Below, one piece after another: positions 11,302 to 31,159 of a stretch of DNA of 32,000 bases (the stretch's first letter is position 1; each line of letters opens with the position of its first letter). Origin of the DNA: Akkermansia muciniphila ATCC BAA-835 (GTDB taxonomy: Bacteria > Verrucomicrobiota > Verrucomicrobiia > Verrucomicrobiales > Akkermansiaceae); contig NC_010655.1 in assembly GCF_000020225.1 (NCBI RefSeq), positions 360,001 to 392,000 of the forward strand. The letters are read 5' to 3'. The position numbers and the translations under genes are program-made. The notes below the pieces were generated by a model that saw only the letters and a list, made by a program, of their open reading frames with translations, was not told where the DNA came from and made no database searches.

Positions 11302-11562
11302 ATGGCCAAACAACGGAAAAACGCTCCCGGATTTGAAGAATCCGTAGCACGCCTGGAAGAAATCATACGCCTGACGGAAGCCCCCGTCACCGAGCTGGAA
11401 GACATGATAGCCCTGGTGGAAGAAGGCAATAAGCTCATCCGTCACTGCCGCAGCATCCTGCATGATGCGGAACTGCGCATTCAAACTCTCAGCAACCCGG
11501 AAACCGTTCAGGATAAAACGGATACTGATGAACCAGACAGCAATGAATTCTCCCTCACCTGA
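11302..11562 (+). CDS. xseB: Exodeoxyribonuclease VII small subunit
   Basis: 86 aa. FEESVARLEEIIRLTEAPVTELEDMIALVEEGNKLIRHCRSILHDAELRIQTL matches the XseB helical-hairpin pattern. xseB-dxs linkage is common. Confidence 0.85.
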   Translation: MAKQRKNAPGFEESVARLEEIIRLTEAPVTELEDMIALVEEGNKLIRHCRSILHDAELRIQTLSNPETVQDKTDTDEPDSNEFSLT

Positions 11563-13429: not shown

Positions 13430-13436
13430 TCTGTTT

Positions 13437-14746: not shown

Positions 14747-14848
14747 GCAACATGCCTATCCCGCTTTCATCCTCAGCAGGGGATGTTCCCCGCCCCGCTC
14801 AACACTTCCTTCCTCCGGGACGGGATGCGCATTGTTCCGTGCGCGAGA

Positions 14849-14877
14849 TTGACTTGTCCGCAGCCTTCGGGCAGAAT
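14849..14877 (+). promoter_or_regulatory. Candidate sigma-70-type promoter for the LptF/G-family gene
   Basis: TTGACT (14849-14854), a 17-nt spacer, then CAGAAT (14872-14877), about 20 nt upstream of the ATG at 14898. E. coli-type consensus is applied to a lineage whose promoter rules I cannot verify. Confidence 0.25.
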
Positions 14878-14897
14878 ATCCGGCACGGTTTTACTGC

Positions 14898-15989
14898 ATG
14901 AAGATCCTTGACAGATACATTGCCCGCCAGCTGCTGGGTGTCACGGCCCTGGGGGTAATGGCCCTGAGCGCCCTGCTCCTTCTGGGCAACCTGTTCAAGG
15001 AACTGCGTCCCCTCCTGGTGGAAAACAAGGCTCCCATCAGCATCGTTCTGGAATTCATCTTCCAGGTCATCCCCTTTTCGCTGATGTTCTCCATTCCGTG
15101 GGGGTTCCTGACGGCCGTTCTTCTGGTGTACGGCCGTCTGGCCTCGGACAACGAACTCACCTCCATGCGCATGTCCGGCATGAGCCTGTGGCGTCTGAGC
15201 GCCCCCGCCATCGCCATCGGCATCGCCCTTTCCGGCCTTTGCTACTGGATTAACATAGACATCGCACCGCGCGCCAAGCAATCCATTTCCGAGTTGCTCA
15301 TCAAAGCCGCATCCATCAACCCGAAGGGGCTTCTCAATGAAGGCCAGGCCATTACCAAATTCGACAACCTGGAAATCTACATCGACAAACGCGTGGACGA
15401 CGTCATCCACGGCATGCATATCTACCAGAAAGCGGACGACAAATCCCCGTCTGTGGCCATGCACTCGGAACGCGTGACCATGGATTTCTCCCCCGAGAAA
15501 AAAATCCTCACCCTGCATCTCATCAATCCCCTCATCACCACGCAGGAAGAAGGTTCCATCTCCCAAAGCGTGACCATGGACGAGATGCCTCTGAGCATCA
15601 ACTTGGACAAATCCCGCTCCCGGCGCATCAAGGCCAACCGCTTCACCAACCGGGAAATCCGGGAAGCTCTGGACACGCCCGGCTATCTGGATAAAAAGCA
15701 GACCACGGAATTCGCCACGGAACTGCCCAGGCGCGCCTCCTTCTCCCTGGCCTGCATCGTCTTTGCCCTCATCGGCGTGCCACTGGCCATCAACACCCGC
15801 AGAAAAGACACCTCCACAGGATTTGCCCTGGGCATCCTGATCGCCTCACTCTACTTTCTGGCCCTGATCTTTGCAGACTTGTCCCGGAAAAACGACACGA
15901 TGCTCCCCTATATTCTGCTGTGGCTTCCCAACATCATCACGGTTGCCGTGGCGTTGCACCTTCACAAACGGGCCAAGCACAAAGGATAA
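14898..15989 (+). CDS. LptF/LptG-family (YjgP/YjgQ) LPS export permease
   Basis: 363 aa. N-terminus MKILDRYIARQLL is the family hallmark. Three TM segments, then a periplasmic beta-jellyroll-sized insert, then three C-terminal TM segments. Confidence 0.85.
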   Translation: MKILDRYIARQLLGVTALGVMALSALLLLGNLFKELRPLLVENKAPISIVLEFIFQVIPFSLMFSIPWGFLTAVLLVYGRLASDNELTSMRMSGMSLWRLSAPAIAIGIALSGLCYWINIDIAPRAKQSISELLIKAASINPKGLLNEGQAITKFDNLEIYIDKRVDDVIHGMHIYQKADDKSPSVAMHSERVTMDFSPEKKILTLHLINPLITTQEEGSISQSVTMDEMPLSINLDKSRSRRIKANRFTNREIREALDTPGYLDKKQTTEFATELPRRASFSLACIVFALIGVPLAINTRRKDTSTGFALGILIASLYFLALIFADLSRKNDTMLPYILLWLPNIITVAVALHLHKRAKHKG

Positions 15990-16037
15990 GCCCCCGGCGG
16001 AAGCCCTTCCCGCTGGCGTGGAATTAGCTTTCACAGC

Positions 16038-17459
16038 ATGGGAGCTTCGGGTAACATGACGTGCATGCAGCACGTCCCCACCATCGCCATCGTAGGCAGG
16101 CCCAATGTCGGGAAATCCGCCATTTTCAACAGAATGGCAGGCAGGCGCATCGCCATCGTGCATGATGAACCCGGCGTCACCCGCGACCGCCTTTCCGCCC
16201 CCTGCAAGATTACGGACCGCGCCTGTAAAATCATGGATACGGGCGGTATCGGCGCGCGCCTGAGCGACGGCTTTGCAGAACAGGTAGAGGCAGAGGCGGA
16301 CATTGCCATAAAAACGGCGGACCTCATCCTCTTCGTGCTGGACTGCCGGGATCACCTTACACCTATCGACCAGAGCATCGCGGACCACCTCCGCAAATCG
16401 GACATTCCCGTCATCCTCCTTCTTAACAAAGCCGACCACGAAAAACAGGACCTTAATCTGGGCGAATTTGCCGGACTGGGTTTTGACGACCATATCTTTC
16501 TTTCCGCCGCCCACGGCAGAGGCTTTTCCGAATTAGCCTCCCGGCTGGACGGTTTTCTCAAGCAAAAAGGGGCTCCGCTTAAAGAAGAACTGGAGGAAGA
16601 ACCGGAAAACGGAGAGGAAACGGCCCTTCCCATCAAGGTAGCCGTAGTGGGACGCCCCAACGCAGGCAAATCCTCCCTGGTCAACGCCATCCTCCGGGAC
16701 AGGCGCACCATTGTCTCCAATGTGGCGGGCACTACCCGCGATGCCATTGACGTCCCCTACCTGCACGACGGCCAGCCCTACGTGCTGATTGACACCGCCG
16801 GCATGCGCCCACGCTCCCGTCGGGACACCTCCGTAGAAGTTTTCTCCGCCATGCGCAGTGAAAAAGCCATCCGCCGGGCGGATATCTGCCTGCTGGTCAT
16901 TGACATTGCGGCGGGCATCACGCAGCAGGACCGCCGCATTGCCGGCATCATTGCGGAGGAAGGAAAACCCTGTATCATCATCGTCAACAAATTCGACCTC
17001 TTCCATCCGAATGCCTCCCGCAAGGACCGCATGGCGGAAGTGGAGGAACAGGTGCGCAGGGAACTCTTCTTCATCAGCTACGCGCCTTTCATCGCCACCT
17101 CCGCCAAAAAAGCGGAAGGCGTGGAAATCATCTTCAAAGTCATCACGCGCATCCGCCGGGAATCCCATAACCTGCCCACTACCGGCCAGCTCAACCGCCT
17201 GATCCAGCTTGCCCAGCAGATGAATCCCCCCGGCGCCGCCAGCGGCTCTGCCAGAAGGTTGAAAATATATTACGCCACCACAGCGGTGGACCCCAAGTAC
17301 AATACTATTCCCGTCCCGCGCTACGTTCTTTTCGTCAATGACAAAAGCCTGCTCACGGACAGCTATTCCCAGTACCTGCGCAACAAAATAAGGGAAGCCT
17401 ACCCCGCTCCCGGCATTCCGGTCATCTTCTCCGCCCGTTCACGCGTGCGCAACGACTGA
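16038..17459 (+). CDS. der: Ribosome-associated GTPase Der/EngA (tandem GTPase + KH-like domain)
   Basis: Two G domains: IAIVGRPNVGKSAIFN ... DTGG ... NKAD and VAVVGRPNAGKSSLVN ... DTAGMR ... NKFD. C-terminal KH-like tail. The true start may be at 16065 (MQHVPTIAIVGRPNVGKS). Confidence 0.93.
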   Translation: MGASGNMTCMQHVPTIAIVGRPNVGKSAIFNRMAGRRIAIVHDEPGVTRDRLSAPCKITDRACKIMDTGGIGARLSDGFAEQVEAEADIAIKTADLILFVLDCRDHLTPIDQSIADHLRKSDIPVILLLNKADHEKQDLNLGEFAGLGFDDHIFLSAAHGRGFSELASRLDGFLKQKGAPLKEELEEEPENGEETALPIKVAVVGRPNAGKSSLVNAILRDRRTIVSNVAGTTRDAIDVPYLHDGQPYVLIDTAGMRPRSRRDTSVEVFSAMRSEKAIRRADICLLVIDIAAGITQQDRRIAGIIAEEGKPCIIIVNKFDLFHPNASRKDRMAEVEEQVRRELFFISYAPFIATSAKKAEGVEIIFKVITRIRRESHNLPTTGQLNRLIQLAQQMNPPGAASGSARRLKIYYATTAVDPKYNTIPVPRYVLFVNDKSLLTDSYSQYLRNKIREAYPAPGIPVIFSARSRVRND

Positions 17460-18446: not shown

Positions 18447-18888
18447 CTCCCTTTCTTTCCTGCCTGTTTGCACGCAGATAATGCCGCGCACGATTGATTG
18501 CTTCTCGCTTTCGGGAAAAGCCGGGCGGCCGTTGCGGTTACGGTTCTTCAGATTTGACTTGGCTGTTGTCTTGGGTTTCATTGGCGGTGGGGATTTGGGG
18601 TGGTTGAAAAATGGAGTGGCTGGCGATGGGCGGTACACTGGTGTACCGTTGCACCGGGTGAACTCTTCTTCAATCATACGCTTCTTTTCTTCCTTGAATG
18701 ATTTTGGCACCCACTTGTCGATGTCAAAGTCATAGTCCATATCTGGGGGAAGGAGCATCCTCCCAAGGATTGCCATCCATGGCACCTTCGGGAACAATGC
18801 TCTTGATGGCTATCTCTGCGTCTTGACGCGCTCTCATTCGGGCAATATACTCATTCGCATCAAAACTACTTGTATATCTGTCTATCAT
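18438..18888 (-). pseudogene. Hypothetical protein split by a +1 frameshift in a C5 homopolymer
   Basis: A 52-codon ORF (18888 down to 18730, MIDRYTSSFDANEYIARMRARQDAEIAIKSIVPEGAMDGNPWEDAPSP...) continues in the 119-aa ORF frame (...PDMDYDFDIDKWVPKSFKEEKKR...) if one C is removed from the minus-strand CCCCC run (ggggg at 18744-18748). No recognisable domain. The 3' end overlaps the oppD-like stop by 9 nt. Confidence 0.4.
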
Positions 18889-18943
18889 AATAATTTAAAT
18901 TGTGGTCACCGAGAAAAACTCAGCAACCGGGGTTAATGTTGAA

Positions 18944-19193
18944 CTTGATAATTTGATGAAAAGTAGTGGTAACTATATGTGAAATAGTATGTTATTTTTT
19001 CATCGGTATTTCATCAAAATTTTTCGACCAATGAAAAGAAGAAGCAACCGGGGCAAAAGAGAAGTCCAATCCTGATATTTTTCTTTTCAGTGGTTTTATC
19101 CTTGTTGAGCCGATGATGAAAGGGCGATGAAAAGAAAAACTTCTGATAACTATTCTTTTATGTTCTCATTCATCAATTCATCAAATTATCAAG
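18944..19193. repeat. 17-bp perfect inverted repeat pair enclosing iteron-like short repeats
   Basis: cttgataatttgatgaa (18944-18960) is the exact reverse complement of ttcatcaaattatcaag (19177-19193). The AT-rich interval between them holds repeated (c/g)gatgaaa(a/g)g units (18955, 19031, 19112, 19125), gcaaccgggg twice (18923, 19035) and attcatca twice (19169-19183). Confidence 0.5.
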
Positions 19194-19209
19194 AGCAACG
19201 AGAAAAAAA

Positions 19210-20443
19210 TTAAAGGTTCTCCAGCATCTGCCGGGTGACGGTGTAGAAGCGTCCGACTTTCCGACTCTCGACGTATGAGGGTTCGTTGAGAAACACGCCC
19301 ATCTGATAGGAGGTATAGCAGAGCGAGTTCGGTGCCGGATGCAATTTCCAGCATTCCTGTACCACTTTTCTCAGTGCCGTGCGGTCGGCCTTGACGCGCT
19401 GATAGTCGAAAAGGTTGAGGATATCGTTCATGCAGAACGAAACGGACTCAACATTCTTCGTCACCATTATGTCCATTAGCAGCTCGGCGAGTTCTATCTC
19501 CACACGGTTGCGGTTGGCGCGGATTACGCGCTGCAACGCCTCGGTGTCGGTAAGAGCAGGGTCGAACCACATACGGCTTTTCTCGGTGGTGGATAGAGGT
19601 CGCTCCGAAAGATGATGCAGAAATGCTGGAATCTCGGCTCTCACTTTGTCGAGAAATGCGGTGTCATCGTGTTGCAGCCGCTCAATCTTCCTGACCCAAT
19701 AGCGAGTTTCGCCGGGATCAATGACAACGGGAAGATGCTCGTTGTTGGAACACAGCACGAACTTGGCGAAGAAACTCACTTCCTCGCGGTCGCGTCCTTG
19801 CGCCTCCATCTTGTAATTGTAGGTGATTGAAAGGTTCTTCAGACGCTCGGAGTCCTCACGTTTATTCAGAAGCACCTCATCAACGACAATTACCAATTTC
19901 CCGTCCCAATCGGAATTGAACTGACTGCGGAAGCTCTCGTTGGTGTTGAAGGTCACGTTGGCCTCAAACATCGCTTTGAGAAAGTTGAGGAGCGTAGATT
20001 TCCCGGTGTTGCGTTCTTCCGATAAAGCAGCAGAATCGGGAGTTTCTGCAACGGTTTCGTATAGAGCAGTTGCAGGTAGTCAAGACCGAGTTCGTACTGA
20101 CTGACGAAGATGTGACGACAAGGGCTTCGATTGTCGGCCATTCTCCCGGCGTGGGGATATGGCTTATGGGCGCATATCGGTTGAGGAAATTGCCTACAAC
20201 GGGCTTGTAGTCTATGTGAGCCGGAACACAGCAGAAGCCATCATACTTGGGTACATTGGCGAAAAAATCTTTGCCATAGTCCTGACGGATGGCCTCAATG
20301 CTCCACGGCATACGGTATTCCACAAGTTCGCCTGTGGCGTTGGGACGCATCACAATCTTGTAGTAGGTCGTGGCGATACGCACAAAGCGGTCTTCGGGTA
20401 GGTCAGTAGATTGTGCATTGTTTTCTTTCATTGGCTCAGTCAT
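19210..20443 (-). pseudogene. Primase C-terminal/SF3-helicase-like (DUF5906/VirE-like) replication protein with at least 2 frameshifts
   Basis: Three consecutive minus-strand frames carry one protein: MTEPMKEN ... PGEWPTIEAL | RHIFVSQYELGLDYLQLLYTKPLQKLPILLL | SEERNTGKSTLLNFLKAMFEANVTFNTNESFRSQFNSDWDGKLVIVVDEV ... Walker A NTGKST is at 19993-20016 and Walker B VVDEV lies downstream. Frame changes are at about 20112-20124 and about 20018-20028. The start overlaps the excisionase stop (ATGACTGA). Confidence 0.75.
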
Positions 20444-20756
20444 TTTTAGAGTTGAGAATATCGGATACCTCACTCTGGCGATAACGGACACTGTTGTTCA
20501 CTTTGACAGGGGTGAGTTTACCGCGTTTGGTGAAATTCCAGACGGAGGTTTCTCCTATGCCGAGTTGGGCGTACACCTCTTTCTTGGTGAGCAGACGGTC
20601 TTCCTCGGCTTTCATGAGGATGGGGAGAAGACGCTCGCGAGTAGCGTCGATGGTGTCAACCACAAGCTGATGGAGGTCAGCGAGGGTGACATTGAGAACA
20701 ATGTTGGGAGAGTTGGGGTCGGAGAGAGTTGCTTGAAGAAGGGTATATAGGTTCAT
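20436..20756 (-). CDS. Helix-turn-helix DNA-binding protein, excisionase (HTH_17/MerR-like) family
   Basis: 106 aa from the ATG at 20756 (MNLYTLLQ...). LLTKKEVYAQLGIGETSVWNFTKRGKLTPVKVNNSVRYRQSEVSDIL fits the excisionase-type HTH_17 pattern. The 193-aa open frame upstream of this ATG has no recognisable content. Confidence 0.72.
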   Translation of the reverse strand: MNLYTLLQATLSDPNSPNIVLNVTLADLHQLVVDTIDATRERLLPILMKAEEDRLLTKKEVYAQLGIGETSVWNFTKRGKLTPVKVNNSVRYRQSEVSDILNSKND

Positions 20757-22106
20757 TGGCTGTATGCTTGAATCTATTGAAATGAATCGCCTGATTATCT
20801 GCACTGCCAAACCTCCGGCGACGATTGAAGGCATGGCGGTGTGTCCCGGAAAGGACATAGCTGTGGCTGTCGGCCCCTTTTTCGTTGAAATCAACACAAG
20901 GGGTGCTACCGACCCTTTTGAGGTCAGCAGACGGACGCACTGCCGATTACGGGTGCCTCTGACAACCGGGCACAACCGTGGCTGTCCGCCTTGTCGGGGC
21001 AGACTTGCGTCTTGCAATGTCGCATGGGTGCAACATACGCTGAAATGTTAAGATGGAACATCGCGCGTACCGCGCTTCATAGGATATATTCCTCTACCTG
21101 CATCTTACCATATCCTATTGTCAGTCATCGCTGCCACTAAATCCACAATTATCAGCGTGCTGACAGTCTGATATAATCATCTGCGTACCAAGGAATATCC
21201 TTTCTTTCATTGAGCCATATACAGCAGCCATTCAATCCTTTGCAAACCGTTGAGCATCGCTTCCTTAGTGCGGGTTGTTATCGGTCTGCGTCTGCCGTTA
21301 TCTTAGGCTCTCTCATAGTATTCCGGGCGGCTTCAGCCGGTCGTGTTGGTAAGTATGAACACAAAAAAGTGTAGCACAGTCAGGAGCATCATTCCAATCC
21401 GATATATAAAAGTTGAATGTGTCGGACGGTGGCTCTGCCATCTTGTGTTATATAAAGATACGAAATATTTTTCGTATTTCCAAATTTTTAGATCCCTCGA
21501 CCGAAGAAAGTGCGATTTTGCCGCATTTTCCGCATCATACGACACGGCGGCAACTGCCGACAATATGCCTTGAACCAAAGATGATAACGGTGCAATGTCG
21601 CAGGTTCGTTCCCGCACACCATATGTTTCGCTCGGCAAGCGTCGGCGCACTTTGAGCAGTGCGTGAGTCATTTGTCCTCGAAGCCGGGGACTTGGGTTAT
21701 GGTCTGCCCTTGTACGGGACTTTTTAGGCACAATCCATGCTGTTTGACCGTCACCGCAGAGCTTCGATGTATAATTCCATCCGTTGATGATGGTGTGTAA
21801 TTGCTCCGCTGGGTCGCATGATGTGCCATCACAAAATACAAAACAGAGGAATGTTTCAAAAAGTTCAGCCAATCAGAAAGATTTTTCTTTCGGCGAAAAA
21901 ATCTGATTACCGATACAGCCTGACATTTGAAACGCCCCGGAATTGCGATGCAAAGATAGTAGCGATAATCGAAGCCTCCAAATAATCAGATGCCCGGTAT
22001 CGCTTCAGGTTGTACAAGTATTGCCTAATATCGCTTTTAGCTCACCATCTCCACTGTACCGCAAAGATAATATGTCTGGATCTAAACCACCAAATTTTTA
22101 GTCCCA

Positions 22107-22289
22107 CTATCCGTGAATCTCCGTTATACTTCCGAGGTTCAGCCAAAAACTTCCGACCCATTTCCGAATACCGCTTTCTTCCGGCAATTCTAAAACGAAT
22201 ATGTCCTTCACAATATCTTGCGGAGTACGGATCACTTGTCCCTTTTCAGCCAACTCCAAAACGCCTATTTTTATACTGACTTTGAGCAA
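22107..22289 (-). pseudogene. Remnant of a DUF1016/YhcG-type PDDEXK nuclease gene (fragment)
   Basis: The 60-aa ORF contains VLELAEKGQVIRTPQDIVKDIFVLELPEES. This resembles the conserved (V)LELAEKGQ-I-x-P-x-D-x-IKDPYVLEFLGLPE linker of YhcG-family proteins as I recall it. No continuation is seen in any frame, and flanking DNA lacks intact ORFs. Confidence 0.3.
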
Positions 22290-22433
22290 GCCGCATAAAA
22301 AGGCCTGAATCTATATGTCGTCGGAGAGTTCGCCCCCCCAATGCTGTGATAAACATTCATTTTCATAGAATTGATGTTCAAGCCTATCATCCAGCTCTAA
22401 AAGCTCCCACTAATGAGACCAATATCATTAACT

Positions 22434-22472
22434 TTACTTCCAAATTTATATTCAAACTAGATCTGGAAGTAA
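22434..22472 (-). terminator. Hairpin immediately after the methyltransferase stop (possible operon terminator)
   Basis: 9-bp perfect stem ttacttcca (22434-22442) / tggaagtaa (22464-22472) with a 21-nt loop, starting 2 nt after the stop codon at 22474-22476. There is no clear U-tract. Confidence 0.3.
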
Positions 22473-22473
22473 A

Positions 22474-23769
22474 TCACTGGTAATCAATCACAATTACACT
22501 TTCTCTTAGTTTGCCGATTTTATCACTTTGCTGTGGGCTGGTTTTTAAATCCCTCGCTTTTCTTATTTCGCGAACCTTAAATCCACAAGATTCTGCTATG
22601 TCAGCAATGATATAATCAACAGGAACTTCAACTCCATAGTAAGCAGAATTAGCCACATTGAAATATATGACACCCCCTTTATGCATTTTCTTTGCAAATT
22701 CCGAGAATAAAAATTGCATATCCTCAAAATAGGCACATATCATATTTGTAATATCTGTATTCCATGTATTTAACTCTTTATTAGACATCTCTAGAAGGCT
22801 ATTCTTAAGTCTTTCATTTGCTATCGGAAAGACTTTTCCATATGGAACTTGAACATGAGAACGTAATGTGTTTTTACGTAATTCACGAAGTTCCTCATAA
22901 GAGTTAATTAATTGTAAAACTTTTAGCTCTAACATATAAATATCCGTGTAATCTCTGGAGTTTAGATAGGGTGGAGAAGTAATAATCAAATCCACTTCTC
23001 TATCTGGAACCTGTTGTATGTTTTTCCGAACATCTCCCAAATAGCATATCTCAGAATTTTGTACAGATGGATTCTGTTTGGAAATGATTCTAATATCTTC
23101 TGTAAAAATTGAATTTAATCTGTCCAGAAAAAAATTATGAATATCTTTTCTACTAAAGATTCTAGTTTCCCATCCTTTCTTGTACGACAAGCACTTGCCA
23201 TTACGAAACATATTGCTTGCTTGAATGATAATCGAAGCCAATGCGATTGTAAATAAATTCTTATAATCATCATTATCAACAATCGTTCTAATGGCATGTC
23301 TTACATCAAGTATTCCATCTATAGCAGTGTCGTGAAAATTCCACTTCTTACTCTGCTCTTTTTTTACAATCGTATCGCCAAAAGGTAATGATTCTATTTT
23401 ACGTATATTTCGACTTGTACGTGACAGCTTCTTTGTTACGGCTTTAACATAATACGTAAAGGTATCGACATTATATTTTCTACCCAATTTGACCGTTGAT
23501 AGGAGATGCATAAAAGGACTGACCTCAAAAGAATAGCACTTTATTCCGTGGTTTTGCAGTTCAACAGGAGTTGTTCCGCTACCACAGAAAGGCTCTAATG
23601 CACAGGTTGGCGCAAAAGGTAATTCGCCTAGTATGTCTTCAATAAACTCCTTAGAATATCCTTCCACAAAAGGGTACCAACGATGTACAAAAACATTCTT
23701 GTTTTTGTCAAATTGCATAACCGAATGGTATTTTTCTGTGCAATCTATGAATTTATAGTCTTTGTACAT
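22474..23769 (-). CDS. Amino-DNA methyltransferase (N4-cytosine or N6-adenine; N6_N4_Mtase-like)
   Basis: 431 aa. AdoMet motif I LEPFCGSGTT (23569-23589) is preceded by HRWYPFVEGYS. Catalytic motif IV DLIITSPPYLNSRDY has SPPY at 22966-22977, about 200 aa downstream of motif I. Confidence 0.85.
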   Translation of the reverse strand: MYKDYKFIDCTEKYHSVMQFDKNKNVFVHRWYPFVEGYSKEFIEDILGELPFAPTCALEPFCGSGTTPVELQNHGIKCYSFEVSPFMHLLSTVKLGRKYNVDTFTYYVKAVTKKLSRTSRNIRKIESLPFGDTIVKKEQSKKWNFHDTAIDGILDVRHAIRTIVDNDDYKNLFTIALASIIIQASNMFRNGKCLSYKKGWETRIFSRKDIHNFFLDRLNSIFTEDIRIISKQNPSVQNSEICYLGDVRKNIQQVPDREVDLIITSPPYLNSRDYTDIYMLELKVLQLINSYEELRELRKNTLRSHVQVPYGKVFPIANERLKNSLLEMSNKELNTWNTDITNMICAYFEDMQFLFSEFAKKMHKGGVIYFNVANSAYYGVEVPVDYIIADIAESCGFKVREIRKARDLKTSPQQSDKIGKLRESVIVIDYQ

Positions 23770-23782
23770 AGTTGTTAATTAT

Positions 23783-24898
23783 TCAGTTGGGATGTTCATT
23801 TATTACTCTAAAATCATCTAATTTAATGTGTCTGTAATAAGCTGGTCTATCTTTCTTAGGTATTTGATCGATGGTCATGTCTATTCCTGTGTCAGGAAGT
23901 TCTTCGTCTCTAGCATCAAATACTGCTAAATACCCCAACTTGAAATCTTTTTCCTCGGCCAACAATTCTGTTATGTAAGAGGTTGATTGTTTAAATGCAT
24001 CAGGGACAATACGCGGTTTGGCACTATATGTGGTTCCTATTTTCTTGCCTAAATGATGAACACTAGTACCTACCCACTTGACTTCTATAAAATACAATCC
24101 CTCGCCATCTTCATCAATCATAGCAATATCCAATCTCTTCAAACTTTCTAACATGACCTCTTTCTGCACGAAGAAAACTTTTAATTTTTCCTTTAAGAAC
24201 ATACGTAAATCATCCCTAAAACAATCTTCTGGAGTATTTCTGAGTAATTGCTTATTGGCTTTGATAAACTGTTCTTCATTAAGTTCTGATTTCAAATCGG
24301 TTCGTAAAGATTTTAAATGACTTTTCTCAACAAAGAATTTAGAATAGGTATCTCTGAGTTTTAAGTGTTTTCTATATTCCTCAAGTACTCTCGGCAATTC
24401 TGAAATAGGCTTTTTACTATTGAATGAGTGTAAGGCCGAGCTTTCATAAAAAATGGAATCACCACCGTCGCGGCCGTTAACAAAATAATTAATAATGCCT
24501 TCTGAAGTCACCATAAATACAACGATACCATTCTTTGACATTTGTGTGAAAATACGTCTAGTTTCGTTGTTATCTTTGTGCAATTCGTTATCAAATTCTT
24601 GAATATTAAAATTAGAATCAATGACAATGTGGCGATTCTGAACAAACGTTGGGTCTGTAAACAACTGTTCAATAGCACTATCTGCATTATTTGTAAGATT
24701 CTGTAAGTCTTCTTCTGATATGACAATATACTTAAAACTATTGTCTGGGTGTTTATCGCACATTGTTTTTATGAGCGACTGCATAAGCTTGAAATTGTCA
24801 GTAGCTTCCAATCCATTCAATGCCGCGTCCACTATAGCTTCTTGATTACGTTTTAGCAAATCTTTAAAGTTTGCATTTTGGCTGAATCTTGTTTTCAT
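23783..24898 (-). CDS. Protein with a C-terminal PD-(D/E)xK (restriction-endonuclease-fold) nuclease motif and an unknown N-terminal domain
   Basis: 371 aa. ...PEDCFRDDLRMFLKE ... LKRLDIAMIDEDGEGLYFIEVKWVG ... QSTSYI gives the E ... D ... E-x-K ... Q layout of PD-(D/E)xK nucleases. D codons are at 24113-24130 and EVK at 24077-24085. The first ~230 aa show no motif I recognise. Confidence 0.6.
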   Translation of the reverse strand: MKTRFSQNANFKDLLKRNQEAIVDAALNGLEATDNFKLMQSLIKTMCDKHPDNSFKYIVISEEDLQNLTNNADSAIEQLFTDPTFVQNRHIVIDSNFNIQEFDNELHKDNNETRRIFTQMSKNGIVVFMVTSEGIINYFVNGRDGGDSIFYESSALHSFNSKKPISELPRVLEEYRKHLKLRDTYSKFFVEKSHLKSLRTDLKSELNEEQFIKANKQLLRNTPEDCFRDDLRMFLKEKLKVFFVQKEVMLESLKRLDIAMIDEDGEGLYFIEVKWVGTSVHHLGKKIGTTYSAKPRIVPDAFKQSTSYITELLAEEKDFKLGYLAVFDARDEELPDTGIDMTIDQIPKKDRPAYYRHIKLDDFRVINEHPN

Positions 24899-24904
24899 AA
24901 CCTG

Positions 24905-25492
24905 CTACTTTATAATTTCGCTAAAAACATACTCAAAATATAACTCTATGTATTTTTCATCGCTGATAGCTGATGCGTCGTCAAGAGTTTGTTCAAAAGC
25001 GATTTTGAAATCTTTGAGGACTTTTAGTGTTTCGCTATCTGGTGATGATGTATCTATGCCATCAATATTGTTAGTTTGAGATGCGTTTTCATAAGATGGG
25101 TCATTAACGATGAAACCAAATAATCGTTTTTCGCCGTATTTGCCTAACATATACATAATAGTTTTCAGCCATTCAACTTTTTCTTGATTCAAAGGAATCT
25201 CCTTCTTAGAACATAAAACCAATCCACCCTCCTCTTCACGTAATTTTAAAGAACTTCTTAGGAAAACTAAACTCCGTTCAATCAAATCTGAATATGGACC
25301 GAAAGTTGTTACTGTAAAATGGTAATATGAAAATATATTTTCTCCTTCATGCTTGAATGAATAGAGAACTTGTACCAAATACAATATTCTTTGGAAAGAT
25401 TGTTCTGAAACCGCCCCCCAACCCATACTTTTGGCTATGGTTGAGACTGTTACAATATCTTCATTTGCTCTTATCAAATTCTTTTCTAGCAT
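24905..25492 (-). CDS. Small helical protein (candidate 'middle component'/adaptor; weak DUF4065/Panacea-like N-terminal pattern)
   Basis: 195 aa. The start overlaps the ATPase stop (ATGCTAG, 25486-25492). FQRILYLVQVLYSF ... FTVTTFGPYSDLIERSLVFL resembles the LQKLLYxAQ ... W-x-GP-(V/Y)-S pattern of DUF4065-type proteins. No catalytic motif. Acidic, low-complexity C-terminal third. Confidence 0.55.
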   Translation of the reverse strand: MLEKNLIRANEDIVTVSTIAKSMGWGAVSEQSFQRILYLVQVLYSFKHEGENIFSYYHFTVTTFGPYSDLIERSLVFLRSSLKLREEEGGLVLCSKKEIPLNQEKVEWLKTIMYMLGKYGEKRLFGFIVNDPSYENASQTNNIDGIDTSSPDSETLKVLKDFKIAFEQTLDDASAISDEKYIELYFEYVFSEIIK

Positions 25493-27501
25493 AATTCCAA
25501 TCTGTTTTTAATATGATGATAGATTGATTTTAATTGCTCACTTGTGTTCTGTATAGTAGATTGTTTTGCAATATCCAATAACCCAACAATACCAAGATCA
25601 ACATTTTCCTGATCCAATAAATGCTCAATAAATAAACTATTGTTCAGGTTTGATGTTATGATTAATGAGTTGGGCTTCTTTAGGAATTCAGCAAAAACGC
25701 TTGCAGCATTCCTTTCGTATGATATATCCAAACTACTGTCCGGTGTCTCAACTATATAAAAAGACGGAGTCCTATAGAAGAATGTAAGAATACTCATTCT
25801 AAAAGAATGATCCACAAAGAATCTTTGTGATTCTGACATTTCTTCTTCGTAAAACCGGACTTTCCCATCAATAACAGGATAAAAACGCTTGTTTGTATCT
25901 CCAGTTTGTTTGATGTATGTCAGCTCGCAAGGTACACCTAAAAACTTTCCTGCGTATTGGGCAAAAATCGAGGAAAACGCATGAACATTAGCTGTTATAA
26001 CATCTTCTATTTCGTTTGAAATAGAAGTCACGATATTATACTGCTCGTCACGTTGTTTTTGGTATGCCTCTTTTTGTTGGGTCAGACGATTTACTTCATC
26101 TAGGAATGGTTGAATGGAATTTTGACTATTATCAGACATAGCATTTTCATACTCCAGTTCCCTGATTTGTTGCTGAATCGTTCTTCTTTCCAATTCAATC
26201 TTAGTAAACTCTGTATCTGAGTTAATGATTTGTTGCTCTATATTTTGTATTGTCTGCTTCTTGGTATTAATAGACTGATATAATGTTTTTCTATGTGTGC
26301 TTATCTCATCAAAACGTTTTCTTAATATTGTATCCGTTTCTGTGTTTTCATTAATTGAAGAGCCACAAGCAAAACAACTATTTGAGTCATTTGCAACTTT
26401 TTCAACCAATTCATCATTTGGCTGATTGCACATCGGACAGATGTGGTTCAGCTGAATGTTCTTTATGAAAACATGATATGAAGGATGTAGAGTCTCCCAT
26501 ATATGGTTATTTAGTTGCTCCTCTATTTGTTTTAACTGTTTATCCATATCATTTGCAGATAAACTTATTTTGTTGATTTCATTCTGCAATAGTGATATGT
26601 CTTGACTTTTAGAAGCACGTTCTTTTTGTATGGATGCCAGTTTGGCGTCCATTCCTGCAAGCTTTCCCTTTAAATCAATAAGAATAAGTGCAGTGTTCCC
26701 TTGATTAGCTGTTGAGTGGTCGGCTGACGGAGAAGTATCCTTCATTTTGCCAAGAACCTTATTAATAGCTCTCATGTCTTCTGAACTATGACGAGACAAA
26801 CTATCAAAATATTTAGCTTTTCTAATAGCTTCTTGCCGTTTCTTGTCGAGAACAGGGTCATTGAAATATTTGTTAAATAGTTCGCTTTGTACATCAGGGA
26901 AGAAGCCACCATCATTCCAAAGGATGGTCTTGTGGTCTTCTCCGAAAAAAAGTACCTCGTTTACGAAAAATATTAAATCATCAAATTCTAAATTTGTATT
27001 AGTCTTAATGATTTTCTCATATAGATAAGGCAACATATTAACTTTTGCAGCATCAGATAATTTTTCGTAGCTAAACTGATTGATTAAGGTGCCAAATACT
27101 TCTGTTCCATCAACCTTAAGTTTGGTTAAGGTTATGGAGGATAAATCTCTTGTCAAATCAACTGTAACATTGTTTATCTTCATGCTAATTGATACGGTAG
27201 GAGAAGCATCCGTGTGAATGCTGTCATCCATGCGATTGCTGAAATACTTTTGCGGAAACAGTTGGCGTTTTTCTATAATATTTCCTTGGTATGTACGAGT
27301 ATATCCGAAAGGCTTTTTGTATAACCCAAGAATTGCATATCGAATAATGTTGACAAAAGTAGTTTTCCCCATGCCATTACCACCTAGCACAAGATTGACG
27401 CCTTTAACAAAATCAAAGGTGTAATCCAAACCGTTGGGGTATAAAGTATAATTCTTAATATTTATACTCAATAGCTCTGGCAGATAAATGTGTCTACTCA
27501 T
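25486..27501 (-). CDS. SMC/Rad50/RecN-like ABC ATPase with a coiled-coil insert containing a 4-Cys zinc ribbon
   Basis: 671 aa. Walker A VLGGNGMGKTTF (about 27355-27390). About 350 aa of Q/E/K/I-rich heptad-like helix. CPMC-x17-CFAC at 26365-26439. Signature-like MSESQR at 25825-25839. Walker B/D-loop FYIVETPDSSLD at 25723-25765. Confidence 0.85.
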   Translation of the reverse strand: MSRHIYLPELLSINIKNYTLYPNGLDYTFDFVKGVNLVLGGNGMGKTTFVNIIRYAILGLYKKPFGYTRTYQGNIIEKRQLFPQKYFSNRMDDSIHTDASPTVSISMKINNVTVDLTRDLSSITLTKLKVDGTEVFGTLINQFSYEKLSDAAKVNMLPYLYEKIIKTNTNLEFDDLIFFVNEVLFFGEDHKTILWNDGGFFPDVQSELFNKYFNDPVLDKKRQEAIRKAKYFDSLSRHSSEDMRAINKVLGKMKDTSPSADHSTANQGNTALILIDLKGKLAGMDAKLASIQKERASKSQDISLLQNEINKISLSANDMDKQLKQIEEQLNNHIWETLHPSYHVFIKNIQLNHICPMCNQPNDELVEKVANDSNSCFACGSSINENTETDTILRKRFDEISTHRKTLYQSINTKKQTIQNIEQQIINSDTEFTKIELERRTIQQQIRELEYENAMSDNSQNSIQPFLDEVNRLTQQKEAYQKQRDEQYNIVTSISNEIEDVITANVHAFSSIFAQYAGKFLGVPCELTYIKQTGDTNKRFYPVIDGKVRFYEEEMSESQRFFVDHSFRMSILTFFYRTPSFYIVETPDSSLDISYERNAASVFAEFLKKPNSLIITSNLNNSLFIEHLLDQENVDLGIVGLLDIAKQSTIQNTSEQLKSIYHHIKNRLELC

Positions 27502-27553
27502 AATACTTTCTTTAAAAAGATCGGCTATATATACAACAGATCCAATATAATTA

Positions 27554-27561
27554 CAAAAATA
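27554..27561 (-). promoter_or_regulatory. Bacteroidota-type -7 promoter box (TAnnTTTG) upstream of the ATPase operon
   Basis: The minus strand reads TATTTTTG, 53 nt upstream of the ATG at 27501, inside a 114-nt AT-rich gap. The expected -33 TTTG is not clearly present (ACTTTA only). Confidence 0.3.
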
Positions 27562-27615
27562 CTTTTTTCTTCAATTATAAAGTTGTAGCACGGTATTATT
27601 AAAAACTTTTGTTCT

Positions 27616-28983
27616 TTATATAATATCCTCCGTTTTTTTTGCTCCACGATATTCTATCAAGCCTAGACTGATTAGATTCTTCAATGTGCGAGACAACGTA
27701 GGGACACAGACTTCTATCATTGTAGACAACTCATTGGTCCTTAGACCAGGAGTTTTAGATAAAATCAGAAGAACTTGTTTCTCTCGTGAATTTATCCTAT
27801 CATTTAATCTATCATTTAGTTTATCATCGGTGGTTCTTAGGGACTTGGTTCGCTTCATAAAAGTAACGGTAAAGAAGCCCTTGTTGTCAAATTCGGGTTC
27901 AGGCAGACCAGCTTCTTTCATAAGGCGGCGCATACGGGGAATGCCGGAGCCTACTTTCTCAACAAGCTGCATTCTTGTGAATAGTCCGAAAATAAGTGGA
28001 TTCCGGCTCATACTCTTTTCTCCGAAGTTTTCTGCAACAATGGGAAGAAGACCTCCGGGATTGGAAATCTCAACCCGGTCATCATATACTTCAACCATCA
28101 CTGTCGCACCCTCTTCATACAGGTCGCGATGACAGATGGCGTTCATAACCGACTCCTTGAAAACATCCAGCGGTATCTCCCATATTTCTTTTCGTGGCCC
28201 CGTACCTTCGATGATGTACTCTACTTCAAGTTTGCTCTCAATCCACGAGAGAGTATTGAGATACTGCTGATATAGTGGTCCTCCAAAAGTCTTGTCATCT
28301 ATGATGTGGACCTTGTCAAAACCTTTGAATCTCAAACATCTTACGACAGCATGAGCAAACTTCCTCTCCGGCTCTTTGCCGAAGAAAAGAGCAGCGGCAT
28401 TCTTCACTCGTCCATCATCGGTTGTTAGTTCCAGGTTGTCGAATAATTGTCGAATCGGTAAATCTTCAGATAGGTGAGATTTTTCAAGAAAGGAACGGAA
28501 ATTATGGCTGTCTATGTCCTCGTCAATGCCAAACCATTTGCATGGAATGGCATCATAAAATATCTTTGAACATTCGGCAAAGAAAGCCCGTATTTCTTCA
28601 GCCGTTCTCAACTTTTGGCAGTTGGCACCCTCTCTTACATATATCACGCCTCCGGCGATGTAAGGTTTGTCCTTACCGCTTGGCACATCAACAACCCATA
28701 TCTTCTTACCATCAACATCCATCGGATAAAAGACGCAATGCAGGGCAGGAGAAATTTCACCGATGGTGTCTTGGATTGCTGAACGCTTATTATTGTCTAT
28801 CTCGGCGCCTATAATCTTGTTGTCATCACTAACACCAATGAGAACATAACCTCCGGCGGCATTAGCAAAACCAGCCACTTCCTCGAATAGTTCTCTTACT
28901 TTTGAAGGCACACTGCGTTTGAAGTCCACATTGTAGCCTTCGCCTCCTTTTACAAGGTCAAGTATTTGAGATGCCGTTAACAT
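27616..28983 (-). CDS. AlbA_2 (Schlafen-like 'divergent AAA') + HATPase_c_4-like + C-terminal winged-helix DNA-binding protein
   Basis: 455 aa. The N-terminus GGEGYNVDFKRSVPSKVRELFEEVAGFANAAGGYVLIGVSDDNKIIG is the AlbA_2 signature. The middle ESVMNAICHRDLYEEGATVMVEVYDDRVEISNPGG is HATPase_c_4-like. The C-terminus REKQVLLILSKTPGLRTNELSTMIEVCVPTLSRTLKNLISLGLIEYRG is a MarR/ArsR-like wHTH. This family is often mis-annotated as RecG-like. Confidence 0.8.
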   Translation of the reverse strand: MLTASQILDLVKGGEGYNVDFKRSVPSKVRELFEEVAGFANAAGGYVLIGVSDDNKIIGAEIDNNKRSAIQDTIGEISPALHCVFYPMDVDGKKIWVVDVPSGKDKPYIAGGVIYVREGANCQKLRTAEEIRAFFAECSKIFYDAIPCKWFGIDEDIDSHNFRSFLEKSHLSEDLPIRQLFDNLELTTDDGRVKNAAALFFGKEPERKFAHAVVRCLRFKGFDKVHIIDDKTFGGPLYQQYLNTLSWIESKLEVEYIIEGTGPRKEIWEIPLDVFKESVMNAICHRDLYEEGATVMVEVYDDRVEISNPGGLLPIVAENFGEKSMSRNPLIFGLFTRMQLVEKVGSGIPRMRRLMKEAGLPEPEFDNKGFFTVTFMKRTKSLRTTDDKLNDRLNDRINSREKQVLLILSKTPGLRTNELSTMIEVCVPTLSRTLKNLISLGLIEYRGAKKTEDII

Positions 28984-28987
28984 AATG

Positions 28988-28995
28988 CAAAATTA
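28988..28995 (-). promoter_or_regulatory. Second TAnnTTTG-type box just upstream of the AlbA_2 gene
   Basis: The minus strand reads TAATTTTG, ending 4 nt before the ATG at 28983. That is too close for a normal leader, so it is either a leaderless-type start or coincidence. Confidence 0.15.
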
Positions 28996-29035
28996 CGAAA
29001 TTATTTTGAAATGACATAATGATAAGGGCTGTGTG

Positions 29036-30250
29036 TCACCACATCTCACACTCTTTCTTCGACATTGCGGCGATTTCATCGGCTATCTCTTCGGAGGAGA
29101 GTTTGATGTAGTCCATGAAGGTCTTTTGGGTTTTGTGGCCGCTGACGTGCATCATCTGGAGCATCGTGTATTTGTGGGAGAGGTACATATTGGTGATTCC
29201 TGTTCTTCGGGCGGTATACGAAGTTACACAAGCATAACGCGGAACAATAACGTTGCCGTTGAGGTCGGTCTCAGCTTCCTTGCCTTCTTTTTTCAGTGCC
29301 TCCTTCTGCTTCATAGTCAATCGGGTCGGCACTTTCTCAGCAAGGGTCGGCATAATTTCCGACAAATCTTTGAGAATGTTCTTGATGTAGCGGTTCAACA
29401 CCTGCTCGTTGACTTTCGGCACATTGTAGCCGTATTTCTCGCAGATGGCTATTAGATTCTCATTAAGAACCGGAATTGTCACCTCGGTCTTGGTCTTTTG
29501 CTGGACTATACGGATGATGCGTGTGCCTTTGCGTGTAGTCTCAAAGCAGTCGGCATGAGATTGTTGTAGTCACTGACACGTTGGCAAGTATAGCAACCGA
29601 TGAGAAAAACATCGCGTATAAGGTCGTTCTTACCGGTCAGCGGCATTTCATAGAGAACTTGCAGTTCATCTTCCGTCAGATAGATTTCGACAGCCTTGTC
29701 GCGGTCTTCAATCTTGTTCTTCACAATCAGCGAAGCGGCACGTTGGTTGTGTCATGCACACCATCAATGAAAGCGGCGTTTATCAAAGCTTTCAGGTTGG
29801 TCAGATGCTTGTTGACAACCTTCTCCATATAGCCGTTCGCGCCTTTTCTCTCGCCTCTTCACGCTTGGTAATCGCCTTCCGCTCGGCTGCGGCTGCTTCC
29901 TCTTTTGCCCTGCGCTCTGCATCCACCTTTTCAGACTCGGATATGTAGCGCACATCCATGTCGAGAGCCTCACGATCGAAATCAATTTTCGCCATGTGAG
30001 CCTTTACGATGCCTTCAATCTGCGTTAGCTTGGCATGAAGTTGGTAATTCTTCTTCTGATGCGCCAGCCACGCACGTGGCGAAGCGGTGGCTTTCAGCCA
30101 TTCGTTCACCTCCACTTGGAGCAATGTCGAAATAAGCACATCAATCTTTCGGGTATGGATGCGGATAAACAGAGTCGCGGTATCCTTTTTCAAGTCCTTG
30201 TTGCGAACATGAAACGGTGTCAATTTTTTCGGAGAGGGTGTTGTTGCCAT
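29036..30250 (-). pseudogene. Tyrosine recombinase/integrase (Bacteroidota-type with Arm-binding N-terminus) with at least 3 frameshifts
   Basis: Fragments in successive frames: MATTPSPKKLTPFHVRNKDLKKDTATLFIRIH ... EKA | NGYMEKVVNKHLTNLKALINAAFIDGVHD | NQRAASLIVKNKIEDRDKAVEIYLTEDE ... CQRVSDYNNL | ADCFETTRKGTRIIRIVQQKTKTEVTIPV ... TSYTARRTGITNMY ... HVSGHKTQKTFMDYIK. The catalytic R, the R in ARRT, H and Y are all recognisable. Frame changes are at about 29835-29850, about 29745-29752 and about 29550-29558. Confidence 0.85.
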
Positions 30251-30354
30251 ATATTTGTTTGTCGTTAAATTTGAATGTCGGCTTTCACAGTTGTTCCCTG
30301 TCAGCCACTTTGGTTCTGCAAATATAACAACTCAAACTGCCATTTGTCAAATCG

Positions 30355-30376
30355 GGTCACCACGCAGGTCACCACG
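30355..30376. repeat. Tandem direct repeat GGTCACCACG-ca-GGTCACCACG upstream of the integrase
   Basis: Exact 10-nt copies at 30355-30364 and 30367-30376, about 105 nt upstream of the integrase ATG (30250), followed by a T6 run. A related tggtcaccg occurs at 18903-18911 near the other end of the island. Confidence 0.6.
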
Positions 30377-30523
30377 TTTTTTGAATGACGGTGAAATTCC
30401 AAAATTCAGTCGAAATTTATATTGCGTTATTATTCAGTATTTTGCATCCAGTTCAAATTCATCTTGATTCACCTCAATTCACAAACTCAAGTTCTGTTGG
30501 AACCACGCCACGGAAAAATCCTT

Positions 30524-31159
30524 TTAACAGAATTGATTTCCGCACAATTCTTCCAGAATACCGTAAAAACGGCCCACATGCACCCCGTCCACCAGCACAT
30601 GGTTTGCCTGAATGGCCACGGGCATCACCATCCTGCCGGAAGCATCCGCCTCCATCTTCCCCCAATGGATGAGGGGAAAGTATTGTCCCCGAAACACTCT
30701 GTAGGCGCTGGCCACCTGTGTGAATGGAATCCACGGCAGGCAGCTGAATACGGCGATATCCGCCCTATGGCACGGATTCGCCTGGGCGGGAGCAAGTTTG
30801 GCAGCCTGCACAAGAGGAACGGCATGTTTCAGGAAATCAGACAACTCCATCCGGTATTCCACTAAAATCTGAGTGAATTCTCCATCCGCAGCCAGCACTG
30901 GAACCAGGGCATCCACGGACTCATACTCCCATACATCCCCTTCCTCCACCCGCTGGCGCAGCTGGGGCACCCTGTTCAACGCCTTCAGCAGCACAAACAG
31001 GCACAAAATGAAAAAGGAAACCCCCTCCCGTTTCGCATAACGGTACAGGGCATCCACCCGGACCGGGGACGTAATGGAAAACATGGGGCAGTCAAACGTC
31101 TGGAAATACTCATAATGAGACTTTCGAGGCCAGGAAGAGATTTCTATTTTCTTTTTCAT
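30524..31159 (-). CDS. cat: Chloramphenicol O-acetyltransferase-family (type A CAT-like) protein
   Basis: 211 aa. WPRKSHYEYF N-terminus, SCLPWIPFT, and the catalytic-His region AIQANHVLVDGVHVGRF (the H-x-x-x-D-G pattern of CAT). High GC like the core genome. Substrate not verifiable. Confidence 0.8.
   Translation of the reverse strand: MKKKIEISSWPRKSHYEYFQTFDCPMFSITSPVRVDALYRYAKREGVSFFILCLFVLLKALNRVPQLRQRVEEGDVWEYESVDALVPVLAADGEFTQILVEYRMELSDFLKHAVPLVQAAKLAPAQANPCHRADIAVFSCLPWIPFTQVASAYRVFRGQYFPLIHWGKMEADASGRMVMPVAIQANHVLVDGVHVGRFYGILEELCGNQFC

Follow-up and report, generated by a model that had tools for sequence, protein, structure and literature searches.

A four-gene cassette of Akkermansia muciniphila as a candidate ATP-gated restriction-modification system with a Lamassu-type SMC-like ATPase

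A compact operon of four genes was analyzed in a 32,000-nucleotide stretch of Akkermansia muciniphila ATCC BAA-835 (assembly GCF_000020225.1, contig NC_010655.1, positions 360,001 to 392,000 of the forward strand), and this whole stretch is referred to below as the window. The operon encodes an ATP-binding cassette (ABC) ATPase that resembles SMC (structural maintenance of chromosomes) and Rad50 proteins, a small middle component (MC), a predicted nuclease and a DNA methyltransferase (MTase), as shown in Table 1; genes 1 to 3 are called the triad, and all four together the quartet or cassette. An initial annotation, made from the sequence alone, had described four intact minus-strand open reading frames (ORFs), and the ORF list confirmed them with exact coordinates. 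The 7-nt overlap of genes 1 and 2 (ATGCTAG, 25486–25492) was verified by direct reading of the sequence, the gaps of 6 nt between genes 2 and 3, 13 nt between genes 3 and 4 and 114 nt upstream were all as claimed, and every quoted motif (GGNGMGKTT, MSESQR, FYIVETPD, D...EVK, FCGSGTT and TSPPY) was found and is also conserved family-wide. The guanine-cytosine (GC) content is 0.33–0.35 over 22.5–28 kb versus 0.55–0.60 at 1–18 kb, the core part of the window, so that the low GC of the operon stood, while the figure of about 52% given for core genes proved too low and the contrast is larger than proposed. A nuclease-anchored survey, in which one genome per species was scanned, yielded 51 loci of the same family, and an independent ATPase-anchored scan of metagenome contigs yielded 80 loci.

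Table 1. Genes of the cassette and the elements that flank it, in coordinates of the window.
Feature	Coordinates	Strand	Size	Accession or basis
Gene 1, SMC/Rad50-like ABC ATPase, LmuB-like	25486–27501	minus	671 aa	ACD04168.1
Gene 2, middle component	24905–25492	minus	195 aa	ACD04167.1
Gene 3, predicted PD-(D/E)xK nuclease	23783–24898	minus	371 aa	ACD04166.1
Gene 4, DNA methyltransferase	22474–23769	minus	431 aa	ACD04165.1
Upstream AT-rich gap with promoter-like elements (putative promoter)	27502–27615	minus	114 nt	Promoter scan and sequence read
Hairpin, 1 nt past the MTase stop codon	22434–22472	minus		Sequence read

Gene Products of the Cassette

The gene 1 product carries a Walker A motif (GGNGMGKTT, aa 40–48), a signature motif (SESQR, aa 556–560) and a non-canonical Walker B motif (FYIVETPD), and its coiled coil bears a four-cysteine apex (CPMC...CFAC, aa 355–379). 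It matches AAA_23 in Pfam (E = 3e-10), and among the PADLOC models those of LmuB were the best, at E = 5e-18 and over nearly the full length. The LmuB model PDLC03859 matches 22 of 22 family ATPases (best E = 7e-24), though with modest scores (~63 bits), and the kinship of gene 1 with LmuB is therefore distant. Across 49 family ATPases the Walker A and SESQR motifs are universal and the Walker B region always reads hhhh[E/D]-T-P-[D/E], with a Thr in place of the usual catalytic Glu, while most members carry CPxC...CxxC at the coiled coil's apex. A Lamassu study reports the same features for short LmuB proteins, whose Walker B motif is hhhhD[Q/S/T/E] and which bear from none to two CxxC hooks. 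The label "Lamassu-like" given in the initial annotation thus holds for the ATPase, for which LmuB is the best match in all 22 cases and which has the Walker B variant and two CxxC hooks, and does not hold for the rest of the operon. Six ATPases of clade B (L031, L033, L035, L036, L038 and L045) lack the CxxC...CxxC apex present in all others, which suggests an alternative mode of dimerization in the family. When gene 1 was compared with PDB sequences, Rad50 was matched at the Walker A motif only, and no solved LmuB or DdmC was matched; the top 120 matches of a profile search based on the alignment of the ATPases all belonged to the same family and thus did not reveal a sister group.

The AlphaFold2 (AF2) model of gene 2 (predicted local distance difference test score, pLDDT, 81.7) shows a winged-helix-like core with helices on both flanks. 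Foldseek returned nothing significant for it, only weak winged-helix matches, the PDB sequences gave no match, and Pfam, PADLOC-DB v2 and NCBIfam yielded no family beyond a sub-threshold SocA_Panacea match. None of 29 middle proteins matched the Pfam MC families of ABC-3C systems or the PADLOC LmuC models, with only SocA_Panacea and HTH_45 appearing below threshold, and a solved LmuC was not among the Foldseek or PDB-sequence matches of gene 2, although a remote structural homology may exist. An ORF of ~200 aa lies between the ATPase and nuclease genes in nearly all of the 51 genome loci, and the middle-protein profiles of clades A and B are homologous (hhalign probability 95.5%, E = 1.6e-8). 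Gene 2 thus appears, by these comparisons, to represent a new protein family.

In the C-terminal domain of the gene 3 product, D257, E272-x-K274, Q304 and VFDAR (326–330) are invariant in the family alignment. The AF2 model (pLDDT 89.8) has a C-terminal half resembling PD-(D/E)xK enzymes, and the Foldseek resemblances include EcoO109I, PspGI, NucS/EndoMS, McrC and an R2 nuclease. It is from this motif pattern and the structure model that gene 3 is predicted to be a PD-(D/E)xK nuclease, since the Mrr_cat/PDDEXK family foreseen for it was not recovered: there was no match to any Pfam PD-(D/E)xK or Mrr family, nor to any other model in Pfam, PADLOC or NCBIfam, nor to PDB sequences. The Pfam C-terminal domain (CTD) families and PADLOC LmuA likewise matched neither gene 3 nor 28 further family members. 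The N-terminal ~200 aa form a folded, confidently modeled alpha/beta domain without a clear relative; a Foldseek signal for a DAC/CdaA/DisA-like fold in it was weak (E ~1e-3, TM-score ~0.43) and was not relied on. A total of 540 relatives of the nuclease (E ≤ 1e-3), mostly 340–380 aa in length, were found among 1.84 billion cluster representatives at 50% identity. The protein had no match in the annotated plasmid and phage collections, and the family is nearly absent from viral contigs. Judged by sequence, gene 3 also appears to be a new protein family. A recurrent 252-aa truncated nuclease was observed on three metagenome contigs (L057–L059, P0029), which break ~100 nt upstream of the gene and carry an intact downstream MTase with a Type ISP restriction-modification (R-M) gene alongside; the truncation may reflect an insertion or an assembly break within the nuclease gene.

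In gene 4, motif I (FCGSGTT, aa 61–67) lies ~200 aa ahead of motif IV (TSPPY, aa 263–267), and the protein matches N6_N4_Mtase in Pfam (E = 2.5e-8) and MTase_II in PADLOC (E = 4e-55). Of the families expected from the sequence, AAA_23 for gene 1 and N6_N4_Mtase for gene 4 were matched in Pfam. Motifs I and IV (SPPY) of the MTase are conserved in all loci. SPP[YF] preceded by T is the PROSITE N4_MTASE pattern, and the UniRef name of gene 4 is "cytosine-N(4)-specific"; from the SPPY motif and this name, the enzyme is predicted to be specific for N4-cytosine. The same SPPY family of MTase was observed at every locus, in a downstream, downstream-inverted, upstream or upstream-inverted position, and in at least 13 of 131 loci (nine genome and four metagenome) it lies upstream, split from the nuclease gene by the ATPase and MC genes.

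Conservation of the Quartet and Its Sequence Specificity

The 51 genome loci are distributed over nine phyla, namely Bacteroidota, Bacillota, Verrucomicrobiota, Acidobacteriota, Chloroflexota, Actinomycetota, Spirochaetota, Cloacimonadota and Pseudomonadota, and in all 51 the ATPase, nuclease and MTase genes lie within ~6 kb. All four genes were also present in 68 of the 80 metagenome loci, and the remaining 12 contigs end <1.8 kb past the ATPase gene, leaving 68 assessable loci. The same MTase family therefore accompanies the triad in 119 of 119 assessable loci, and the recurrence of the gene set (51/51 genome and 68/68 assessable metagenome loci) indicates that the quartet is more than a set of chance neighbors. 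Co-occurrence outside the locus, on which the initial annotation had made its proposal depend, was in this way established across the nine phyla.

The order ATPase, middle protein, nuclease is invariant across the loci, with overlaps or very small gaps between the genes and typical sizes of ~665 aa, ~200 aa and ~360 aa, respectively. Distance matrices from pairwise identities correlate at 0.98 for ATPase and MC, 0.955 for ATPase and nuclease and 0.95 for MC and nuclease, whereas the MTase correlates with the triad at 0.82–0.88 overall and at 0.68–0.74 within the clade of the window, and the nuclease and MTase at r 0.69–0.82. The fixed order and the difference between these ranges (0.95–0.98 versus 0.68–0.88) show that the nuclease is coupled to the ATPase module and not to the MTase. 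The possibility of a stand-alone type II pair next to a separate ATPase module, which had been raised as an objection in advance, fails in the survey, in which the nuclease never occurred apart from the ATPase, middle protein and MTase; the ATPase-anchored scan gave the same answer. The ATPase, MC and nuclease are a co-evolving unit, and the MTase is its obligate but exchangeable partner. A fifth conserved gene is lacking, since among 147 ORFs of the flanks no family was seen more than three times.

Every member has kept Walker A, the signature motif, D...ExK...Q and both MTase motifs (I and IV), which speaks for catalytic competence, and real damage was seen in only two of the 51 genome loci: L026, in which all four genes have decayed, and L047, with a single ATPase frameshift and an intact MTase. 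Six other loci (L032, L040, L041, L044, L046 and L050) are intact, their apparent degeneration having come from the ORF-start rule. No locus among the 51 combines an intact triad with a broken MTase, and the truncated-nuclease variant also keeps its MTase intact; on this small sample, decay is asymmetric in the manner that R-M logic predicts.

Two pairs of loci were compared for the part that carries sequence specificity. The MTases of L001 and L008 are 97–98% identical, with 98% identity in the region resembling a target recognition domain (TRD), while identity is only 38% between the nuclease N-domains, 47% between the middle proteins and 43% between the coiled coils. The reverse pattern was observed between L016 and L017, with 41% identity in the TRD-like region versus 67% in the nuclease N-domain and 73% in the middle protein. 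In addition, L017 of Flavobacterium calami (7376–16234) contains two complete, divergent triads in tandem, with ATPases ~22% identical, followed by one MTase whose start overlaps the stop of the second nuclease. The MTase thus appears to have been exchanged relative to the triad during evolution. A candidate reader in the triad that tracks the specificity of the MTase was not found in the L001/L008 and L016/L017 comparisons, and since no part of the triad follows that specificity, the simplest reading is that sequence specificity would be carried by the MTase alone.

Genomic Island, Regulatory Context and Distribution

Copies of the cassette with 88–95% identity were found in Bacteroidales, in Bacteroides caecigallinarum and in one metagenome-assembled genome of Erysipelotrichaceae, and Capnocytophaga ochracea harbors a full cassette, with an ATPase 83% identical, which adjoins an intact element with integrase, RteC and HTH_17 genes. 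Such near-identical copies across taxa make recent horizontal transfer of the cassette among gut and oral bacteria, between phyla, evident at the level of sequence. Some of the cassette flanks hold genes for integrase, RteC and relaxase, as well as further defence genes. The same locus was found in complete A. muciniphila genomes, and 1,639 assembly-collection blocks list the exact nuclease sequence. In public gut data the cassette is thus very common, and in those for A. muciniphila it is near-ubiquitous. In IMG/VR only three contigs carry it (L140–L142), of which L140 is the Akkermansia island itself (98–99% identity, all four genes) and probably a misclassified or prophage-adjacent fragment.

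In the window, the cassette is located inside a low-GC island of ~12 kb, from about 18500 to 30400. A tyrosine integrase pseudogene lies at 29036–30250 on the minus strand, with its N-terminal, middle and catalytic C-terminal parts in three reading frames, and DUF5906/primase-like and HTH_17 ORFs at 19210–21017 look fragmented. The initial annotation held that the operon has stayed intact while every mobility gene of the element has decayed, and of this the part concerning the integrase holds, on the evidence of its three frames. Direct repeats were sought at the ends of the island, and none was convincing.

The host had been assumed to belong to Bacteroidota; it is A. muciniphila of Verrucomicrobiota, including the type strain ATCC BAA-835 (ACD04165–ACD04168), and one core gene product of the window carries the name of the A. 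muciniphila ribosome biogenesis GTPase Der. In the upstream gap, a promoter scan gave TTAATA-17-TATAAT at 27602–27574 as the top sigma-70-like match in the region, with 10 of 12 positions, and TATTTTTG was read at 27561–27554. The latter agrees with TAnnTTTG, the −7 box of Bacteroidota. As for the hairpin behind the operon (22472–22434 on the minus strand), the predicted 9-bp stem (TTACTTCCA/TGGAAGTAA) does exist; its loop of 21 nt, the lack of a T-tract and a terminator scan of the region that did not call it make the hairpin poor evidence of termination.

Directly upstream of the operon, a gene at 27616–28983 on the minus strand (GC 0.40–0.44) encodes a protein of 455 aa with Schlafen AlbA_2 and HATPase_c_4 domains and a C-terminal winged helix, which weakly matches models for proteins associated with prokaryotic Argonaute (pAgo) and PDC-S50 models. 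As none of the 51 loci has a homologue, this gene was ruled out as a candidate fifth component. Just beyond the island, a gene of the chloramphenicol acetyltransferase (CAT) family lies at 30524–31159 on the minus strand and adjoins MacB/FtsX-type ABC transporter genes.

Proposed Mechanism and Relation to Known Systems

Taken together, the quartet is probably a self-contained, horizontally mobile defence cassette that would work as an ATP-gated R-M system around a Lamassu-type SMC-like machine. That methylation marks self DNA and that the ATPase and adaptor license the nuclease had been proposed from the window alone, and the proposal is supported as far as sequence analysis reaches. The MTase, whose domains are plain, would mark the host DNA at a recognition motif, most likely with N4-methylcytosine, while the ATPase might dimerize through its four-cysteine zinc apex. 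The winged-helix middle protein would tether the nuclease to the ATPase in an inactive state, a step suggested by translational coupling, by a gene order that does not change, by close co-evolution and by the analogy to LmuB/LmuC/LmuA. The clamp would then engage DNA with slow ATP turnover, which is proposed because the Walker B motif lacks the usual catalytic Glu, and the nuclease would be licensed only on DNA without the methyl mark. The mark might be read through the MTase if this serves as a shared subunit for recognition, in the manner of Type I, Type III and BREX systems; alternatively, methylation might act as a veto on a sequence-independent clamp. Methylated self DNA would be spared, and loss of the MTase with the triad intact would be lethal. 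Complex formation is envisaged here by analogy with the sequestration of LmuA by LmuB/LmuC, and sensitivity to methylation and defence itself are predicted.

Several observations weigh against this interpretation. The middle protein and the nuclease match no MC, CTD, LmuA or LmuC family of ABC-3C and Lamassu systems, and since neither has a Lamassu match and the catalytic domain of the nuclease is C-terminal, it is the ATPase that carries the whole analogy with sequestration. Some loci encode the MTase on the other strand, an arrangement as compatible with an independent Type II-like methylase as with a shared subunit. The flanks of the cassette are often ordinary housekeeping genes, which does not speak for enrichment in defence islands. 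Very few loci are informative for the argument from asymmetric decay. A published Akkermansia methylome study reports N6-methyladenine (6mA) motifs only and no N4-methylcytosine (4mC) motif, and so lends no support to the assignment to N4-cytosine. A more specific version, a new class of ATP-dependent "SMC-type R-M" in which a stand-alone MTase would be the sole determinant of specificity, is put forward tentatively. In it, a Rad50/LmuB-like zinc-hook clamp with the new adaptor and PD-(D/E)xK nuclease would read the absence of the mark, perhaps by clamping or by translocation from one unmethylated site to another, and would cleave foreign DNA directly without killing the cell; on balance, this version is less likely than not.

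Different explanations can be given for parts of the same evidence. Lamassu-type abortive infection, in which the triad senses aberrant DNA (ends, palindromes or replication intermediates) and kills the cell, while the MTase is an accessory serving as a regulator, as an addiction or stabilization module or as protection against a different enzyme, would agree with an ATPase that is LmuB-like in sequence, in its Walker B variant and in its zinc hooks, with effector sequestration and release on DNA sensing as the way Lamassu works, and with candidate DNA-binding parts of the triad that do not co-vary with the TRD region of the MTase. Nevertheless, we regard it as rather unlikely, because the MTase is present in 119 of 119 assessable loci whereas described Lamassu systems have none, frequent loss would be expected of a gene that is only accessory, no intact triad with a broken MTase was encountered, and the MC and nuclease belong to no Lamassu or ABC-3C family. 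The MTase adjoins the nuclease in most loci, and the nuclease combines a PD-(D/E)xK core like that of EcoO109I and PspGI with a variable N-terminal domain, so the cassette could also be read as a conventional site-specific restriction endonuclease whose N-domain or middle protein reads the MTase motif, with the ATPase only stimulating or regulating it. Type II isoschizomers can be very divergent, which counts for this explanation; even so, it becomes improbable when TRDs 98% identical go with N-domains 38% identical, similar triads go with TRDs 41% identical, two triads share one MTase in L017, and the MTase lies upstream and apart from the nuclease in at least 13 of 131 loci.

The remaining two explanations are much weaker. 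The strong match of the MTase to Type II MTase models, together with published observations that R-M systems often hold or adjoin other defence genes, might suggest two independent neighbors, a Type II R-M pair of MTase and nuclease plus a module of ATPase and small protein. This is very improbable, since co-evolution of the nuclease is tighter with the ATPase and MC (r ~0.95) than with the MTase (r 0.69–0.82), the order of the triad is invariant while the MTase moves, all 540 nuclease relatives are uniform in size, and nuclease and ATPase are linked in 51 of 51 loci, with no ATPase of the clade lacking a nuclease where the contigs allow. Similarly, a role outside defence, in DNA maintenance or stabilization of an element through post-segregational killing or repair of methylated DNA, would fit a cassette that sits on a decayed integrative element here and near integrase and RteC genes in Capnocytophaga, and R-M-like cassettes can act as addiction modules. 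Many loci have no mobile-element genes nearby, however, the Akkermansia cassette is intact after the decay of the integrase, and addiction and defence are not mutually exclusive in R-M-type systems, so that this role on its own is hardly to be expected.

If the ATP-gated R-M interpretation is true, the cassette would be the first case of a Lamassu-type SMC machine whose self-marking methyltransferase is obligatory, and it would indicate that an SMC-like DNA sensor, normally abortive, can turn into a restriction system that discriminates self from non-self. Two uncharacterized protein families would be added as well, that of the adaptor and that of the nuclease, whose N-terminal domain has no clear relative. 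Should the "SMC-type R-M" version be right, the system would be mechanistically distinct from Types I–IV, BREX, DISARM, MADS and canonical Lamassu and would form an evolutionary bridge from abortive SMC sensors to self-marking restriction. The A. muciniphila type strain is used as a next-generation probiotic and genetic tools for the species are limited, so that a restriction barrier not recognized before and an unassigned methylation motif (probably m4C) would be of direct consequence for transformation and strain engineering. Cultured carriers include A. muciniphila MucT, Capnocytophaga ochracea, C. sputigena, Bacteroides caecigallinarum, Prevotella spp. and Lutibacter maritimus, as well as Flavobacterium calami, Photorhabdus caribbeanensis, Xenorhabdus sp., Rhodospira trueperi, Thiomicrospira sp. 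and Duganella sp., and with such carriers available, the A. muciniphila type strain among them, the cassette is readily testable.

No named system among those searched, PADLOC-DB v2, Pfam and NCBIfam included, matches all four genes. The ATPase heads match the mad3 model of MADS (mad1–8) in 22 of 22 cases, down to E = 1e-14, but mad3 has no coiled coil, the MTase here matches mad2 at motif I only and mad8 is weakly matched; MADS was rejected as an identity, as it comprises eight genes, with MAD6–8 mandatory in the published detection model and without a counterpart in the quartet. The CxC-ABC/PbeABCD systems, whose ATPases form a sister clade of DndD, are similar in having a coiled-coil ABC ATPase with a zinc hook in a restriction-like system, and some of them carry circularly permuted N4-cytosine methylases. 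They universally contain DndE, which has a pair of ribbon-helix-helix (RHH) domains, and an HKD nuclease fused to a superfamily 2 (SF2) helicase, and no DndE, HKD or helicase match was found in the four proteins, which instead include a winged-helix-like partner and a predicted PD-(D/E)xK nuclease, while the PbeC models match the Walker A region only. HEC-02 and Hma combine an ABC ATPase with a NERD nuclease, have no MTase and gave Walker A-level matches only, Ambrosia pairs an HNH nuclease with a two-component regulator, and Septu, Gabija and PARIS showed only Walker A-level or coiled-coil matches. ABC ATPases acting with R-M systems are reportedly treated in work by Krishnan and colleagues of 2020, which may already list such a clade.

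The proposed logic is like that of Type I and Type III R-M and BREX, where the methylase carries the specificity and unmodified sites are attacked by a generic motor-nuclease that depends on ATP, and this likeness follows only from the decoupling of the MTase TRD from the triad and the shared MTase in L017. The motor would differ, with an SMC/Rad50-like ABC ATPase in place of an SF2 helicase or AAA+ protein, and no HsdS, Res or BrxC/PglZ homologue is present. Like Wadjet, the cassette may employ an SMC-family machine to gate a nuclease against foreign DNA; Wadjet, however, tells DNA apart by its topology and size and makes no use of methylation. JetA (kleisin), JetB (KITE) and JetD (Toprim) gave no match, with JetC matched in the coiled coil only (E = 6e-5 and weaker in PADLOC), so that Wadjet (JetABCD) was rejected. 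A 2026 review lists Wadjet and Lamassu as the only SMC-based defences, neither with methylation.

With Type II R-M the quartet shares a separate N6_N4 SPPY MTase and a PD-(D/E)xK nuclease, the MTase being often independently oriented and never lost alone. Unlike Type II R-M, the nuclease is locked to an SMC-like ATPase and an adaptor, ATP dependence is predicted, and the specificity regions of nuclease and MTase are not co-inherited (L001/L008 and L016/L017). With Lamassu, ABC-3C and DdmABC, above all short Lamassu, it shares a coiled-coil SMC/Rad50-like ATPase of ~600–700 aa whose Walker B motif is divergent and which bears 0–2 CxxC zinc hooks, together with a nuclease as the effector and a small middle protein whose gene lies between those of ATPase and effector. 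The gene order here is ATPase-MC-effector, in contrast to the effector-MC-ATPase of DdmABC, and the catalytic domain of the nuclease is C-terminal, whereas the effector domain of LmuA is N-terminal. The predicted outcome is restriction of unmarked DNA, unlike the abortive infection of Lamassu. The statement in the initial annotation that Lamassu and ABC-3C systems lack a self-marking methyltransferase was borne out, as the described systems have none, while the MTase is obligatory here. Of the features that define Lamassu and ABC-3C systems, only the one for the ATPase was found, so the quartet is not one of these as defined, and it is most like a cross of short Lamassu and R-M.

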